A stretch of 64,000 nucleotides of DNA from Escherichia phage ECD7. Of this stretch, positions 32,707-50,621 are shown in pieces (within the stretch, counting starts at the first letter, position 1; each line of letters opens with the position of its first letter). The DNA is taken from the sequence record NC_041936.1. The stretch is one strand, 5' to 3'. The notes beneath the pieces were generated by a model that made no database searches, was not told where the DNA came from, and saw only the letters and a list, made by a program, of their open reading frames with translations. A program made the position numbers and the translations under genes.

Positions 32707-33030
32707 TTAACCGTAAACTACCACAATATTCTGTTTGTGCGTTACAGTCCATTTCAGGTCGATCTCTTCTTCCTTCTTAACGCCGTTAATAACGTCTGGA
32801 TGAGGAACTTTATTAAGTTTCCCATGAGGAAGCAATACAGTCTTGCCCAGCAATTCTTTATCAACGTTATCACCGATATCAATAATCTTACCGACTAAAG
32901 GAATCTCTCCCATAGTTCGTTTTTGCTCGATGATAATACCAAAATCGCTCTTTACTTCGGTCCCTGCGCTTTCCGCTTTAGCTTCAATGATCACATAGTC
33001 ACCAAGTGCTTTAGGAGTTTTAACGGTCAT
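32707..33030 (-). CDS. 31: co-chaperonin GroES analogue gp31
   Basis: 107 aa; GDYVIIEA...IIIEQKRTMGEIP...KVPHPDV pattern parallels recalled T4 gp31. Confidence 0.75.
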   Translation of the reverse strand: MTVKTPKALGDYVIIEAKAESAGTEVKSDFGIIIEQKRTMGEIPLVGKIIDIGDNVDKELLGKTVLLPHGKLNKVPHPDVINGVKKEEEIDLKWTVTHKQNIVVVYG

Positions 33031-33066
33031 AATTTTCTTACCTCTTCAATTCATCTCAATAGTAAA

Positions 33067-33684
33067 TTATTTATATTTCGCGACCTTTGGATTTCGCCGC
33101 AGACCGGAATGTATTTGCGCTATACAACAATAAGAAACATTAAACATATCAGCTATAATTTGCTTCTTAACTTTTCCTTTAAGCCGCATTATTTCTTCGA
33201 CTTGCGCATTTGTCAGTTTTGCCCGTGAGTGGTTTTCACCGACATTGTTATTGAGTCCAGTTCTAAATGAATGTCTCATATTTTCTAGTAAGGTTACTAT
33301 TTCTAGATTCCACACATAATTGCAGGTTTTTACACCATTGATGTGATTAACCTCAAGTCCGGTAACGTCTCCTAGAAATGCATTTGCTACAAGTCGATGT
33401 ATCTTTTCGGCTTTAACTGAGATTTTACCATTGTCTTTTTGTTTTGACAATGTTGAATAATAATATCCATATCGGTCTAAAATTGGTTTTATTATTTTAC
33501 CAGCCCGTTTTTGTTTTACGAGCTTAATATTACCGGGAGAAACTTCTCTATAAAATTCGATACTTCGGTCAATAGATCTCAATCTACCATAATTAGAGAT
33601 TTCATACCACGGATAACCTACAGCTTGTCTCCATTCTTCCGGCGCTGGTAATACGATATTATCATCTTTTGTTTCCATTGTCAA
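33067..33684 (-). CDS. HNH homing endonuclease (NUMOD4 + HNH_3 type)
   Basis: WYEISNYGRLRS and EVNHINGVK...NLE motifs; freestanding between 31 and cd. Confidence 0.65.
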   Translation of the reverse strand: MTMETKDDNIVLPAPEEWRQAVGYPWYEISNYGRLRSIDRSIEFYREVSPGNIKLVKQKRAGKIIKPILDRYGYYYSTLSKQKDNGKISVKAEKIHRLVANAFLGDVTGLEVNHINGVKTCNYVWNLEIVTLLENMRHSFRTGLNNNVGENHSRAKLTNAQVEEIMRLKGKVKKQIIADMFNVSYCCIAQIHSGLRRNPKVAKYK

Positions 33685-34007
33685 CTGCCACCGTAAATTT
33701 CAACGATCTGCGCTGGAGTCAGCCCGTCTACATTAATCAGACTATCAAGCCCAATACTACGGAAACCTTCAACTGCAATTTCATATACTGGCAAAGATGT
33801 TTCTGATTCTTTACGCGGTTTTTCAACATTAGGAACTAACCACTTTTCGTATGTTTCGAAAGGCATCAGTGCCGGATCTCGCGTAGCGATCATATCTCGG
33901 ACAGTACCATCTTTCTTAGTAAACTGCAAAGAGTGAGTACCGACAGAAAACATTTTCTTTAGTGCTTCACGAAGTGCGATATTATCAATTTGTTCAGTCA
34001 TTATCAA
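33681..34007 (-). CDS. hypothetical protein (108 aa)
   Basis: ORF coupled to the cd operon. Confidence 0.45.
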   Translation of the reverse strand: MIMTEQIDNIALREALKKMFSVGTHSLQFTKKDGTVRDMIATRDPALMPFETYEKWLVPNVEKPRKESETSLPVYEIAVEGFRSIGLDSLINVDGLTPAQIVEIYGGS

Positions 34008-45812: not shown

Positions 45813-46142
45813 TCAAATCAGTTTGAAATAGTTGTCTTGCACGTTTTCTTCTGTGATTGCCGTTTTAAATTCTTGACCGTTATCCGGTGTTATGACATAG
45901 CGGTCTGAATAATCACGCCATCTTTTCAGCATACTGACGCCAACATTAACACCATTTTCCCAGAAACGGAAGGTAATCATTTTTGTTTCATATCGGTAAT
46001 CACTTTGAATCAAGCTACCATCACCGCGACGTGATTCATAAACCGTAATACATTCACGGTTAGCGGCTTTAAGGCATTCTTCAATAGTGCCACACGAGAC
46101 AATTTCTGTTGAGTCATCTACGATTTGTTCTACAGTCCACAT
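45813..46142 (-). CDS. hypothetical protein (109 aa)
   Basis: ORF behind the promoter at 46174-46201. Confidence 0.45.
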   Translation of the reverse strand: MWTVEQIVDDSTEIVSCGTIEECLKAANRECITVYESRRGDGSLIQSDYRYETKMITFRFWENGVNVGVSMLKRWRDYSDRYVITPDNGQEFKTAITEENVQDNYFKLI

Positions 46143-46173
46143 AATATAATTCTCTCTTCGTTTCGATGTTTGT

Positions 46174-46201
46174 ATTATACATCATCTGTATTCGGTGTCA
46201 A
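46174..46201 (-). promoter_or_regulatory. sigma70-like promoter
   Basis: minus TTGACA - 16 nt - TATAAT. Confidence 0.5.
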
Positions 46202-46527
46202 CCTTTTTGTTCCATGAAAAGCGGTGCTGTTTCTTCTTTCAGTTTAATAACTAGCGCGGAAACTTCATCAAGAAAATCTTTTTCCATATGAGCAAGCATT
46301 GATTTAGAATCTTTGATGACTTTCAAAGAATATTCACTTAGATTTCCTTTTCCTAACAATAATGCAGGATACACACTATGTGGGATCTCGATTTCATGAT
46401 ATTCGCTCATAGTATAATATTTGTGAATTTTTAAATCTATATTTCTTCGTTGTACGTCTACATCAGCAATGACATACAGAAGTTCAATTTTATCACTTTT
46501 CTGGGAAAGGGTAGCATTCAAAAACAT
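46198..46527 (-). CDS. hypothetical protein (109 aa)
   Basis: ORF behind the promoter at 46557-46584. Confidence 0.45.
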   Translation of the reverse strand: MFLNATLSQKSDKIELLYVIADVDVQRRNIDLKIHKYYTMSEYHEIEIPHSVYPALLLGKGNLSEYSLKVIKDSKSMLAHMEKDFLDEVSALVIKLKEETAPLFMEQKG

Positions 46528-46556
46528 TGTTAATCCTCCGTTGTTTCGATGCTTGT

Positions 46557-46584
46557 ATTATACAACCTCATCTCAGCATGTCAA
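46557..46584 (-). promoter_or_regulatory. sigma70-like promoter
   Basis: minus TTGACA - 16 nt - TATAAT. Confidence 0.5.
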
Positions 46585-46610
46585 CACCTTTTTCATAAAA
46601 TTTTAGGCAA

Positions 46611-46636
46611 TAAAAAAGCCTCCCCGAAGGGAGGCT
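46611..46636 (-). terminator. rho-independent terminator downstream of gene 32
   Basis: AGCCTCCC-TTCG-GGGAGGCT hairpin followed by a U-run on minus. Confidence 0.7.
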
Positions 46637-46646
46637 GTAAAATTCA

Positions 46647-47593
46647 TTACATCGCTAACAGAGAGTCCAGGTCATCCAGATCAGAAGCGGAGGAAGTACC
46701 GCCACCCAGGTCCAGAGATGCCATCAGATCATCAGCGGAAGAATCTGACGCTGTGCTAGTTGCGGTAGTACCAGCGTCGAATGCATTCATCTGTGCATCG
46801 AAATCATCAAGCTGGCTGTTAATCGCTGCCGCAGCACCAGAAGCCGCAGTACCAGCTACCAGCTTACGCCTTTAACTTTCTTAAATTTAGCATCCAGTTC
46901 CTCGAAAGATTTAAACTGGTCTTTTGCTACGATAACATCAATATCTACCATGTTTTCGAACAGATATTTCTGGAATGCTTCATCTTCGATGTTCGGAATC
47001 GCTGATTGCTGCATGAAACGTGAATCATCGTAGTTCAGGAATTTATCTACTTTCTTAGCTTTCAGAAGGAAGTTAGCGCCTTCGAACGGACATACGATGT
47101 TTACAGGTTTTTCGCCCAATTCCGTGTTTACGTTGCTCATTGCCAGAATCTTGTCATAAATTTTCTTACCGAAGCGGAATTTAAATACTTTACCTTCGTT
47201 TTCCGGCGCTTTCGGATCTTTCATGACCAGAATGTTTGCGAAGTAAGAAGATTTACGCTTAACATCTTGATATTCTTTATTGTTGGTGTTGTACAGGTCA
47301 TTTTCGCTAATGTATTTGCACACAGGGCAAGAATCAAAATCACCGTGGGTGCTAGGGCAGTTTTCCCAATAATACTTACCATTTACTTTGAAAGAATGGT
47401 TTACAAGGTTGATGATCGGTAAACCGTCTTCGGTGCGTGCCGGAAGAAAACGAATCACCGCTTCACCGTTACCCGCCGCGTCAGTTTTAATCTTCCACTC
47501 TTTCGGATCTTCTTTGGAGAAGCCGTTGCTACCTTTCAGTGCTGCCAGTTGAGCTTGCAGTTTGGAAGAATCTTGACGACGAAAAATGTTCAT
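46647..47593 (-). CDS. 32: ssDNA-binding protein gp32; reading frame interrupted near 46856-46871 (apparent frameshift)
   Basis: N-terminal/core part (47593-46856) matches recalled T4 gp32 ([53 protein letters not shown]); the acidic C-terminal tail is encoded in the -1 frame down to 46647; start placed at the second Met with AAAGAGG RBS. Confidence 0.8.
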
Positions 47594-47635
47594 AATTATA
47601 CCTCTTTTATACATTAACTATTAATTTGCTAGATT

Positions 47636-47663
47636 ATTATACAGATTTAAATTTACTTGTCAA
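47636..47663 (-). promoter_or_regulatory. sigma70-like promoter upstream of gene 32
   Basis: minus TTGACA - 16 nt - TATAAT, overlapping the 3' end of gene 59. Confidence 0.5.
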
Positions 47664-48340
47664 CTATTTGTTTCGGCTTTTAATTGAGATATTTCTTTAC
47701 ACTCTTTAACTACTTTAACAAATAATGCTCTTGCTTTTGCGGCGTCAATAACAAGTAGTTTCTTGTACGCCTTCATTTTAACACTATAAGTTTGCCAAAT
47801 CAAGTCTTTGGCTACCTTGTCGTGTTCGTCGATTATATTTAGAAAGCTATCTAACAACATAAACGACTCAAACGATATAATCCGATTTTGCAGTAGTTTA
47901 AAAATACCGCTTGTTTCGGTTGCGGGATTATATGTAATTAGCTCTTTAAGAGTAACCCCGCGTTTCTCTGAGAAGTATACCAGACTTTTAATGTCATCGT
48001 CAAATCGTGTTGCAGCATCAGTGATCTTACCGATATACTCCATGTAAAATCCGTATGCGTCAACATCAGTGATTTCACCTACCCATGCATCGGTATTAGC
48101 TACCAGATTGCTTAGGAATAGGAAGTATAATTCTCTTAGATTGTACTTTTCCGCTAATTTTGCGAAATAATACTTATCTCTGCGTTTATTGAATGCGGCA
48201 TCAGACAACCGCATCCTCCAATTGTATTTTACGCAATCATAACGCCCGTTCATGTGAGCTTTCATCATGCAATATAACATATACACAGATTTAGCATTAA
48301 TTCGCATATCTGGATCTGGAGGAAGACGGTTTCTGATCAT
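47660..48340 (-). CDS. 59: helicase loader gp59
   Basis: 226 aa; KSVYMLYCMMKAHMNGRYDCVKYNWRMRLSDAAFNKRRDKYYF colinear with recalled T4 gp59. Confidence 0.85.
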   Translation of the reverse strand: MIRNRLPPDPDMRINAKSVYMLYCMMKAHMNGRYDCVKYNWRMRLSDAAFNKRRDKYYFAKLAEKYNLRELYFLFLSNLVANTDAWVGEITDVDAYGFYMEYIGKITDAATRFDDDIKSLVYFSEKRGVTLKELITYNPATETSGIFKLLQNRIISFESFMLLDSFLNIIDEHDKVAKDLIWQTYSVKMKAYKKLLVIDAAKARALFVKVVKECKEISQLKAETNS

Positions 48341-48349
48341 ACATACCCC

Positions 48350-48619
48350 TTAAATATCGAGAGTGTTGGTCGGTTCGTCGATCACTCCCTTCCTGAGCGT
48401 TCTATTTACTATACATTCTTGTGTGATCTTGTCAATAATGGACACAGGAATATACTTCTGATAGTGACCATATTCGATAGAGTTTTCCTCTACAAACTGC
48501 GTTGTCGCTTCAAGATAAGTCAATCCCTCTTCAACAACCAGTTTTTCGATTGCAAGACCGTTTGCTGTTTTGTTCGCGGCTTTTACCGCATGTTCATTAA
48601 GCATTGAACACCCGATCAT
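48350..48619 (-). CDS. 33: late transcription accessory protein gp33
   Basis: LTYLEATTQFVEENSI resembles recalled T4 gp33; position between 59 and dsbA. Confidence 0.7.
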   Translation of the reverse strand: MIGCSMLNEHAVKAANKTANGLAIEKLVVEEGLTYLEATTQFVEENSIEYGHYQKYIPVSIIDKITQECIVNRTLRKGVIDEPTNTLDI

Positions 48620-48872
48620 AGAGTTCTACCGCTTCGTCGCGTTCTGCTTCGAAGGTTTCGCGCTGTTGCTGGTGATACAGTTTAAACAGAATGCCCCACA
48701 TTTTACCATCTACGCCTAATTCTTCTTTAGCACGCTGCTTGATCTCTTTGATCTTATCGCCATATGCTTCTTGAATGGTTTTCTGATCGCTGGCTTCTTT
48801 AATCAGTTGTGCCAGGGTATTTCCGTGCACTGCTTCGTCGAATACTACTTTTTCTTTTTTCTGTTCAGTCAT
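48597..48872 (-). CDS. dsbA: dsDNA-binding protein DsbA
   Basis: VFDEAVHG..LAQLIKEASD ... ELGVDGKM ... ETFEAE..E.VELYD parallels recalled T4 DsbA. Confidence 0.75.
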   Translation of the reverse strand: MTEQKKEKVVFDEAVHGNTLAQLIKEASDQKTIQEAYGDKIKEIKQRAKEELGVDGKMWGILFKLYHQQQRETFEAERDEAVELYDRVFNA

Positions 48873-48876
48873 AATA

Positions 48877-49482
48877 TTAACCCTCTTTCGTCATTAATTG
48901 AAAACCACGTTCAGCTTTTGAGATTTCGCTAGGACGTAAATCGTCACCCACATATTCTAGCATCATTTCTCGGATAATGTCAAGTGCTTTTTCATCACCT
49001 GATTTTAACTCGAACTCAAGTTCATAATGAGCAGTGTCGCCCATTCCTTCGCCTACTTTGCCATAATAGAAAGTGTCTTTGCACATTTCCACTATACCGC
49101 AACCCAGATCTAGAGTCAATGACTTGCGATATGTCATTACTTGCATTATTGTAGTGATATAGTCTGAGTTTACCCCTAGACTATCAATAAAATGGACGAA
49201 CTCATCCCAATTTGAAAATGTCATTTCCTCGCGGTTGAATAGTCCAGATTCATTATCACCCATTTTGACCATGATCTCTGATTTTCTACAGTCAAGTCGT
49301 GCATAAATTCCTTTTTGACGTAGCGCATGGTCTTCGGTATCATAATAAAATTCGTGTTTTAATATGTTATCTCGGTCTACGATATTATAACCGTCATACA
49401 TTGCTACCCACAAATCACAGATGGTTTCGACGCCAATTTGTGAGTGTGCATAGTATTTTAATTCAAGTTCTTTCATAGTCAA
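48877..49482 (-). CDS. CYTH-like (triphosphate tunnel metalloenzyme / class IV adenylate cyclase-like) protein
   Basis: N-terminal ExExK (KELELKY) and C-terminal acidic strand YELEFELK typical of the CYTH fold; 201 aa; no gene recalled at this position in T4. Confidence 0.45.
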   Translation of the reverse strand: MTMKELELKYYAHSQIGVETICDLWVAMYDGYNIVDRDNILKHEFYYDTEDHALRQKGIYARLDCRKSEIMVKMGDNESGLFNREEMTFSNWDEFVHFIDSLGVNSDYITTIMQVMTYRKSLTLDLGCGIVEMCKDTFYYGKVGEGMGDTAHYELEFELKSGDEKALDIIREMMLEYVGDDLRPSEISKAERGFQLMTKEG

Positions 49483-49485
49483 CCC

Positions 49486-50433
49486 TTAGAACTCACCAAT
49501 TTTCTGCAACATTTTAACTAACGCATTTGTTACAAAATAATTATAAATTTTACCGCGTGGTGCTGGTTTAGATTTCTCCCATGCCAACAAAATTTCATAT
49601 TCGATGTTATCAGGAATAAATTCAAAATCAATAAGTTCGCGGTTTTCGTCAAAGCGTCGTGCTTCTTCCTCTGTCATCAAAGACTTTGGATCTTCGGCAT
49701 CGAAAATTTGCTCTAACCATTTGGTTGCAATTGGTTTAGCTCGTTCCCCTTCCAGTCGTGAGATAATGAAATCACTACGGCACTTGATAGAAGCTACACC
49801 GTCTTTTGCGTCACCCTTAACACATTTTACCATAAGGTCTTTGTAAGGGCTACCATATTTGCATTTCTTCCATGCTTTCTGTACTGGCGCCCACTGTTTC
49901 ACATTTTTGTATTTGTGCAACTGTGTGTAGTCACCATCGCCGGAGTTGATTAGCACCTGGCGACCTTCTACAGAAAACTTTTTAGTTAACACAGCTATTA
50001 TATCATCCGCTTCAACTTTGTCAACCTTAATAACGTGATAAGGCATATTCTCTTTAAACTCTTCGGTGATCTTATTGATCGCAGCAAAGATCATCTCCCA
50101 ATCACGCGGATCTGCGTCTCGTTTTTCCTTACGGTTGCGTTTATAGTAAGGGGCGATATCACGTCGCCAGTAACCTTTGCTTGAATCAAAAGCAAGTACC
50201 GTAATAGGGTATTGCTCTTTGAATTTTGTCATATTATAACGCATGGTGTCAAGAATAAGATGACGGATCATGCCTTCATTAATAGGATCTTCCGGTTTAA
50301 AGGTATGCGAGATAGTAGCAATCATAAGCTGCGACATATCAATCAAATGCACACCCTCCGGCAGTTTATCTTCTGGATCATCGAAGAAATCATTAAGTGT
50401 AGCGGTAGTTTTTGTAAACGGGTTATACGTCAT
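49486..50433 (-). CDS. rnh: RNase H / FEN-type 5'-3' exonuclease
   Basis: GYWRRD, YYKRNR, EADDIIAVL, GDGDYTQLHKYKNVKQW colinear with recalled T4 RNase H. Confidence 0.9.
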   Translation of the reverse strand: MTYNPFTKTTATLNDFFDDPEDKLPEGVHLIDMSQLMIATISHTFKPEDPINEGMIRHLILDTMRYNMTKFKEQYPITVLAFDSSKGYWRRDIAPYYKRNRKEKRDADPRDWEMIFAAINKITEEFKENMPYHVIKVDKVEADDIIAVLTKKFSVEGRQVLINSGDGDYTQLHKYKNVKQWAPVQKAWKKCKYGSPYKDLMVKCVKGDAKDGVASIKCRSDFIISRLEGERAKPIATKWLEQIFDAEDPKSLMTEEEARRFDENRELIDFEFIPDNIEYEILLAWEKSKPAPRGKIYNYFVTNALVKMLQKIGEF

Positions 50434-50435
50434 AA

Positions 50436-50621
50436 TTAAGTTCTCTCCACTCTCACAACAACATATTCGCCAAACGAGTTAGATACTTCACGATCATACC
50501 CATATTTCTCCATAACTCGCAGAATTGCATTGTTTAATTCGGCGCGGAAATAATTGTAATCCTTATCAGGGATTCTGTCAACTACCCATTTTGCACCTTC
50601 TGACAAATCAACTTTAACCAT
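50436..50621 (-). CDS. small hypothetical protein (61 aa)
   Basis: ORF immediately upstream of rnh. Confidence 0.4.
   Translation of the reverse strand: MVKVDLSEGAKWVVDRIPDKDYNYFRAELNNAILRVMEKYGYDREVSNSFGEYVVVRVERT

Follow-up and report, generated by a model that had tools for sequence, protein, structure and literature searches.

The locus

The window analysed here is a stretch of 64,000 nucleotides (nt) from Escherichia phage ECD7 (NC_041936.1), and the subject of this study is a minus-strand gene at positions 48877–49476, which lies between rnh and dsbA and encodes a 199-residue protein of the CYTH family, probably a stand-alone triphosphate hydrolase related to the tunnel domain of E. 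coli YgiF. The 2.4 kb around this gene match 57 Krischvirus genomes at 96–98% identity in nucleotide comparison, and the window belongs to this genus of RB49/Phi1/JSE-like T4-type coliphages. A first-pass annotation of the same DNA had placed a 201-residue open reading frame (ORF) between dsbA and rnh. The frame itself stands (48877–49482 in the ORF listing, with an in-frame TTG start at 49482 and the stop codon at 48877–48879), but its start was probably set too far upstream. The likelier start is the ATG at 49476, because an AAGGG run resembling a Shine-Dalgarno element ends 6 nt ahead of it and the annotations of all homologues in the databases use the same ATG, so that the protein begins with MKELELKY. 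It is not a chance ORF, since it matches Pfam CYTH and PHROG 14893, has homologues in 57 phage genomes and shows a ratio of nonsynonymous to synonymous divergence (dN/dS) below 1.

According to Pfam and PHROG matches, the minus-strand gene order is orf61, rnh, CYTH, dsbA, 33, 59 and then gene 32. The T4-type RNase H/5′-3′ exonuclease gene rnh (49486–50433; Pfam RNaseH_C and 5_3_exonuc_N) is directly upstream, and its stop codon is only 9 nt from the CYTH ATG. Directly downstream is dsbA (48597–48872; Pfam Phage_DsbA), whose GAGGG ribosome-binding site sits within the final CYTH codons and whose ATG follows the CYTH stop after 4 nt. Genes 33 (48350–48619) and 59 (47660–48340) come next, while on the other side gene 34 and rnh are separated by a 61-residue ORF of PHROG 3594 with unknown function (50436–50621), which Krischvirus genomes conserve and T4 does not have. 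The T4 genes dsbA and rnh are neighbours, 8 nt apart and with no gene between them, which bears out the earlier description of the CYTH ORF as an extra gene relative to T4. The CYTH gene is packed at translational-coupling distances into this leftward replication and transcription cluster and therefore is presumably made early, together with the replication proteins encoded there.

No late promoter (TATAAATA) was found on the minus strand in the vicinity upstream of the CYTH gene. Sigma-70-like matches are numerous on this strand and are not evidence of function. Promoter-like sites in this region are twice as frequent as in shuffled sequences (29 versus 12.6). A perfect sigma-70 consensus (TTGACA, 16 nt, TG-TATAAT) occurs on the minus strand within the rnh coding sequence at 49997–50024, approximately 520 nt before the CYTH gene starts. 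A second good match, TTGACA-18-TAGAAT, is found at 48983–48954 of the same strand within the conserved 3′-terminal part of the CYTH gene, about 80 nt upstream of dsbA, and the conserved last 150 nt of the gene might be kept for holding this dsbA promoter.

Family and fold of the product

The Pfam CYTH model (PF01928) recognises residues 23–191 of the protein with 30.7 bits against a gathering cut-off of 23.2 (E = 3.4e-7), and 12 of the 14 aligned members of the family and its outgroup match the same model. The protein belongs to PHROG 14893 (E = 1e-133), which is listed as “unknown function”; NCBIfam gave no match. In the AlphaFold2 model, built on 14 homologues, the mean predicted local distance difference test score (pLDDT) is 84 and the predicted template modelling score (pTM) is 0.77; it has eight long strands together with helices, among them a C-terminal helix at residues 187–196. 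The predicted fold is an eight-stranded antiparallel beta-barrel tunnel with a C-terminal plug helix, i.e. that of CYTH proteins, as the first-pass annotation had proposed.

Comparison with known structures pointed in the same direction. Searching the Protein Data Bank (PDB) with the single sequence gave only marginal hits, namely the TriTu immunity protein (E = 0.028) and YgiF (E = 0.13). The former was judged a chance match and was absent from the later search with the family profile, in which YgiF was the sole match among PDB sequences. Aligned by hhalign with YgiF-like tunnel domains, the phage family scored 99.7% probability and E = 1.6e-25 over residues 2–196. Fold matches include structures of SaTTM, RNA triphosphatases and Med18/Med20, and in BFVD only the family itself, a few CYTH proteins of uncultured phages (about 16% identity) and giant-virus capping enzymes were found. 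The phage protein carries no CHAD domain, the second module of the YgiF-type CYTH-CHAD architecture, and does not match Pfam mRNA_triPase (PF02940), the model of Cet1-like RNA triphosphatases. The gene product is a stand-alone, single-domain CYTH protein or triphosphate tunnel metalloenzyme (TTM).

Active-site residues and the proposed reaction

Two strands in which the first-pass annotation had seen the hallmarks of CYTH enzymes are indeed present: KELELKY at residues 2–8 and YELEFELK at residues 151–158. The former contains the ExExK motif of strand 1 (E3, E5 and K7 in ELELK; 49456–49470 on the minus strand, as for all features that follow), which does not vary within the phage family or among YgiF-like proteins. 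The latter provides strand 8 with E152-L-E154-F-E156-L-K158 (49003–49023), whose acidic residues are invariant too, so that the expected conservation of the acidic tunnel residues in homologues (E3, E5, E154 and E156) was confirmed. Strand 3 reads Y58-A-R60-L-D62 (49291–49305). The C-terminal helix, which in the alignments and in the model takes the position of the CYTH plug helix, has the sequence S186-K-A-E-R-G191 (48904–48921) with S186, K187, R190 and G191 invariant, YgiF-like proteins included. In the MAFFT alignment E3, E5, K7, K71, R82, E84, R117, E154, E156, K187 and R190 do not vary from the phage alleles through to the YgiF-like proteins, and R60 is nearly as constant. Conservation along the strands follows the i, i+2 pattern of a barrel, with 0.84 at tunnel-facing and 0.58 at outward positions (Mann-Whitney p = 3e-6), a comparison which is partly circular because the inward/outward parity was set from the known motifs.

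The roles of these residues can be read from YgiF, for which structures and mutagenesis are available (Martinez et al., PMC4641920). There metal 1 is held by E160 together with the substrate, metal 2 is held by E4, E6 and E162 and activates the attacking water, and R56 is essential for catalysis. By homology, E3, E5 and K7 of the phage protein would be equivalent to E4, E6 and K8 of YgiF, that is to the ligands of metal site 2 and the substrate-binding lysine, while E154 and E156 correspond to E160 (metal 1) and E162 (metal 2). Both MAFFT and hhalign place R60 at the position of the catalytic R56 (R52 in AtTTM3), with D62 at R58, Y58 at G54 and two residues deleted at the beta3-beta4 hairpin tip.

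Based on these correspondences one can assume that the gene encodes a YgiF-type triphosphate tunnel enzyme without additional domains, which is probably a two-metal triphosphate hydrolase expressed together with replication genes. If it works as its homologues YgiF and AtTTM3 do, the triphosphate would be bound in the basic half of the tunnel by K7, R60, K71, R82 and R117 with the participation of K187 and R190 of the C-terminal helix. Metal 1 would be held by the substrate and E154, whereas metal 2, coordinated by E3, E5 and E156, would activate the water attacking the terminal phosphate, giving a diphosphate product and inorganic phosphate. The most likely substrate seems to be inorganic triphosphate (PPPi) or another small triphosphate compound; that it is PPPi itself we would propose only tentatively.

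Several observations weigh against this assignment. HMMER, in contrast to the two other programs, opens the gap before strand 3, which shifts the alignment by two residues and brings Y58 to the position of R56; if this is right, the canonical hydrolytic arginine is missing. Three features of the hairpin make us favour the alignment of R60 with R56: it runs without a gap from the conserved YYDT via the LR turn as far as R60; insertions and deletions are evident at the hairpin tip, where the alleles P0042 and P0043 are one residue shorter and have a glycine in the loop; and the YgiF-like sequences carry turns of N-G, N-D or G-D type two residues further out. The glycine-containing variants set the tip at residues 63–66. 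The tunnel itself also departs from that of YgiF. Instead of the small-x-R-x-R pattern of YgiF, strand 3 has Y58-x-R60-x-D62, with aspartate replacing the second arginine of RxR; D62 is invariant in Krischvirus-type alleles and in P0044 and is changed to asparagine in the more distant P0045. Besides, three charged residues, K40, D123 and K158, are invariant in Krischvirus-type (A1) alleles, whereas the YgiF positions are uncharged; the more distant P0045 retains both K40 and K158, and P0044 retains K40 but not K158. Because of D62, K40, D123 and K158 the preferred substrate may not be PPPi. A literature search for a biochemical or functional study of any member of the phage family found none, and we infer the catalytic activity, the substrate, the expression timing and the biological role of the phage protein. 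Finally, in one isolate, vB_EcoM_G2494 (L018, MK327935; positions 301–896), the annotation divides the CYTH gene into two ORFs of 66 and 130 residues because of a frameshift, which may be either a sequencing error or a sign that the gene is dispensable in culture.

Strand 3 was also compared with thiamine triphosphatases. Y58 occupies the column that holds a small residue in TTMs and tryptophan or tyrosine in thiamine triphosphatases, but the W/Y-x-R-x-R signature of the latter, whose aromatic residue stacks on the thiazole ring, is broken by the aspartate in place of the second arginine, and Y58 itself gives way to valine or isoleucine in P0044 and P0045 and to serine in P0006.

The frameshifted copy in G2494, together with the rapid divergence described below, suggests weak constraint over much of the protein, and would suit a non-catalytic CYTH-fold protein acting as a binder or sponge of phosphorylated ligands or as a structural partner of replication and transcription proteins. 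A precedent exists in the Mediator subunits Med18/Med20, which appear among the fold matches and share the fold without catalysis. Nevertheless, the residues needed for two-metal catalysis are all invariant across alleles that are otherwise only about 40% identical, and such invariance is hard to explain without catalysis or metal-triphosphate binding, which makes this the least probable of the roles considered.

The two-metal hydrolase has to be distinguished from the other well-known CYTH activity. The first-pass annotation had suggested that the enzyme could make a nucleotide signal, and a class IV (CyaB-type) cyclase would produce cyclic AMP or another cyclic nucleotide during infection. 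CYTH is indeed the family of CyaB, the gene is labelled “adenylate cyclase” in the records of AV108, KMB43 and PHB13, and the HMMER alignment replaces the first arginine of RxR (by Y58), as is the case in cyclases. True class IV cyclases, however, combine HFxxxxExExK with a small residue instead of the first arginine of xRxR and with a strict ExA on strand 8 (Vogt et al., PMC8233210). In the phage protein ExExK begins at residue 3, and just M1-K2, or M-T-M-K if translation starts from TTG, precede E3, which is too short a stretch for the HF motif. The invariant E154-F-E156 stands on strand 8 instead of ExA, and the place of the small C, V or L belongs to the gatekeeper R60 in MAFFT and hhalign alignments or, in the HMMER alternative, to a tyrosine, which is not small. 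The protein thus fails the class IV signature and fits the triphosphatase type, in that HF cannot be accommodated, ExE stands for ExA and, in the favoured alignment, the catalytic arginine is retained. The name “adenylate cyclase” on CYTH proteins is a known annotation artefact (PMC3440374, PMC8233210); since the cyclase signature is missing, the labels on this gene are probably wrong in the same usual way, and “inorganic triphosphatase”, used for Makalu phages, is nearer the evidence. A cyclase is therefore highly improbable, and neither the locus nor PADLOC nor the literature searched supports the suggested connection with cyclic-nucleotide-based immunity.

Distribution and allelic diversity

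Among 50,697 phage records searched by tblastn the CYTH gene was found in exactly 57, all of them Krischvirus and all with the gene at the same position, which completes the survey of related phages that the first-pass annotation had called for. With the most divergent allele as the query no further phage genera appeared at E ≤ 10; T4 and all other isolated phages in this collection are devoid of the gene. RB49p245 and its orthologues in Phi1, JSE, GEC-3S and other Krischvirus phages (PHROG 14893) occupy the same position with 83–98% protein identity, the protein from the window being of the Phi1 type (97.5% identical to Phi1 and 85% to RB49). A word-indexed homologue search returned the phage family only. 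A hidden Markov model (HMM) search of 1.84 billion representative proteins gave three clusters at E ≤ 1e-30 and six at E ≤ 1e-10, beyond which there were generic CYTH proteins of about 200 residues and CYTH-CHAD proteins of about 500 residues. The closest extra clusters, P0043, P0044 and P0045, were found on short contigs of metagenomic T4-like phages that keep the order rnh-CYTH-dsbA-33; relative to the window their dsbA products are 79, 76 and 66% identical and their CYTH proteins 48, 38 and 33%, respectively. The nearest cellular relatives, an archaeal CYTH protein encoded beside a PRK-family kinase gene and another CYTH protein encoded beside a Mur ligase gene, gave no functional clue.

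The order rnh-CYTH-dsbA, which does not change between Krischvirus and relatives with as little as 66% identity in dsbA, and the 9-nt spacing behind rnh raise the question whether the protein works with its neighbours as a 5′-triphosphatase on nucleic-acid ends or nucleotides. It might trim the 5′-triphosphate of RNA primers made by the primase ahead of RNase H, convert the 5′-triphosphate of host mRNA into 5′-diphosphate and so speed its decay, or remove the gamma-phosphate from nucleoside or deoxynucleoside triphosphates (NTPs or dNTPs). The TTM superfamily does include RNA triphosphatases, which were found among the fold matches, the family-specific changes in the tunnel set the protein apart from the PPPi-specific YgiF, and RB49 lacks nudE and the bifunctional NUDIX protein (Nolan et al. 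2006, PMC1524935). Of all this we count only the very stable synteny as support. Even so, T4 replicates with rnh and without a CYTH gene, and genes in T4-like genomes are often neighbours because one was inserted between conserved blocks, not because they act together. Moreover, Pfam mRNA_triPase is not matched, and the conserved SKxxRG helix is the tunnel-end plug of small-molecule TTMs. We consider such a role unlikely, and still give it the greatest weight among the alternatives, ahead of a counter-defence enzyme (discussed below), a cyclase and a non-catalytic protein, in this order.

While the gene is fixed in the genus, its inner part is highly variable. DNA of rnh, dsbA, 33 and 59 is 97–100% identical between the window and RB49 or Skers, and the CYTH gene retains 93–100% identity over about 35 nt at its 5′ end and about 150 nt at its 3′ end. 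Between them sliding identity, dN/dS and allele clustering delimit a variable core or allelic cassette (residues 12–150; 49027–49443, minus strand); over 49441–49022 identity drops with sharp edges to 72–87% with RB49 and to 45–60% with Skers. At the protein level the neighbours are 92–100% identical, compared with 58–59% for the CYTH proteins of Skers, P0037 and P0042. Clustering of the cores yielded five deep allele classes with about 40% mutual identity, as well as a 130-residue fragment and a slightly divergent member; the classes that were looked up are all at the same locus, four of them in Krischvirus-type backbones.

Between the core from the window and RB49-type alleles dN is 0.11–0.13 and dS 0.24–0.50 (dN/dS 0.24–0.45), and dN/dS is 0.10–0.22 relative to Phi1 and Cognac, which are nearly identical to it. 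Comparisons with the deep alleles give saturated dS, while in rnh dN does not exceed 0.024 and dS is 0.07–0.21 between the window and all Krischvirus-type backbones. Since core dS is raised or saturated and rnh dS is low, the alleles are much older than the backbones; they arrived through recombination, the junctions of which fall within the conserved gene ends. Residues 12–150 are swapped among related phages, with the divergent alleles all keeping the tunnel lining. Strong positive selection was considered as an explanation of how the cores diverged and was rejected, because dN/dS stays below 1 and dS is elevated or saturated.

This diversity would be expected of a counter-defence or host-manipulation enzyme that destroys a triphosphate-bearing immune product or signal, such as a ppp-nucleotide or PPPi released by dGTP/dNTP triphosphohydrolases, and whose surface diversifies as hosts sense or inhibit it. 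If true, it would explain why a genus-wide core gene exists as several alleles of about 40% identity with an invariant active site. At least five such classes of residues 12–150 do reside in backbones that are 97–100% identical, divergence is concentrated at outward-facing positions, and SAMHD1-type defensive dNTPases release PPPi (bioRxiv 10.1101/2021.04.26.441389). The dN/dS values (0.10–0.45), with dS raised or saturated, however, testify to old recombined alleles rather than to rapid positive selection, and mosaic patches are common in these genomes. Furthermore, PADLOC gave no match for the CYTH protein at E ≤ 10, no literature on counter-defence by phage CYTH proteins was found, and removal of PPPi has no evident benefit for the phage. 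In sum, this role is quite improbable, and a small-molecule triphosphate hydrolase remains our preferred interpretation.

About 10% of 120-nt tiles over 50 kb of the window have less than 80% identity to RB49 or Skers, so that the CYTH locus is an extreme case of a general mosaic habit and is not unique. Two further patches lie in otherwise 97–100% identical neighbours: the 3′ part of rnh at 49561–49680 is about 72% identical to RB49 and Skers, and gene 59 at 48003–48062 is 83–93% identical. The N-terminal part of gp32, the ssDNA-binding protein encoded by gene 32 (46647–47614, minus strand), is one more patch, with about 72% nucleotide identity to the same two phages. This gene also appears frameshifted: ORF 46856–47614 ends early, the acidic C-terminal tail is in another frame and the tblastn match is split between frames −1 and −3, whereas RB49 gp32 is a single ORF of 322 residues. 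Either this is a sequencing error or an essential gene is really frameshifted. The slot at 46081–46620, upstream of gene 32, is a replacement hot spot, containing a 109-residue ORF of unknown function in the window (46198–46527, minus strand), an endonuclease gene in RB49 (RB49p240) and a GIY-YIG nuclease in Skers. At 33067–33684 (minus strand), between a 31.1-like ORF and the dCMP deaminase gene, a 205-residue ORF with HNH-type motifs (EVNHINGV, then N) has no counterpart in RB49 and Skers (tiles 33001–33780 score 0.11) and probably represents an inserted homing endonuclease gene.

Comparison with known systems

The CYTH assignment of this gene is already known, contrary to what the first-pass annotation implied. 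The GenBank record of RB49 describes RB49p245 as “similar to P45267, P30871, HI1598, ygiF”, Table 3 of Nolan et al. 2006 (PMC1524935) lists a CYTH domain for RB49ORF244c (E = 0.0026), which we take to be the same gene under older numbering, and several newer genomes label it “inorganic triphosphatase” or “adenylate cyclase”. Arbiol et al. 2010 (PMC2839356) do not discuss the CYTH gene. What is added here is rejection of the cyclase reading, the full set of hydrolase residues, the presence throughout the genus and the cassette-like allelic diversity. As a lead to cyclic-nucleotide immunity the gene is weak. Being fixed across a genus of T4-like phages beside replication genes, it offers a tractable route to the in vivo role of TTMs, and we know of no phage CYTH enzyme that has been characterised. 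It is also a clean example of cassette-like exchange of alleles within a coding sequence, with junctions by the catalytic motifs.

Judged by alignments, the closest relative of the phage protein is the tunnel domain of E. coli YgiF (PDB 5a60/5a61), an inorganic triphosphatase composed of CYTH and CHAD. They share ExExK, K71 (K69 in YgiF), R82 (R81) and R117 (R126), the ExExE of strand 8 (E152/E154/E156 and E158/E160/E162) followed by SGD, the SKAxRG C-terminal helix and, in the favoured alignment, the catalytic arginine R60 (R56). They differ in that the phage protein is phage-encoded and fast-evolving, consists of 199 residues without CHAD instead of 433, has D62 for R58 and Y58 for G54, a beta3-beta4 hairpin shorter by two residues, and the extra charged K40, D123 and K158 at strand positions assigned as tunnel-facing. 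In size and architecture it is similar to NeuTTM, CthTTM and SaTTM, single-domain proteins of approximately 150–200 residues with ExExK, xRxR, ExE and a plug helix, which hydrolyse PPPi and/or NTPs by a two-metal mechanism (PMC4641920, PMC8233210). With CyaB of Yersinia pestis (2fjt/3n0y) and Aeromonas hydrophila it has in common the superfamily, the tunnel fold, ExExK and the metal 1 glutamate. From RB49p245 and the other Krischvirus orthologues the gene in the window differs in nothing essential.

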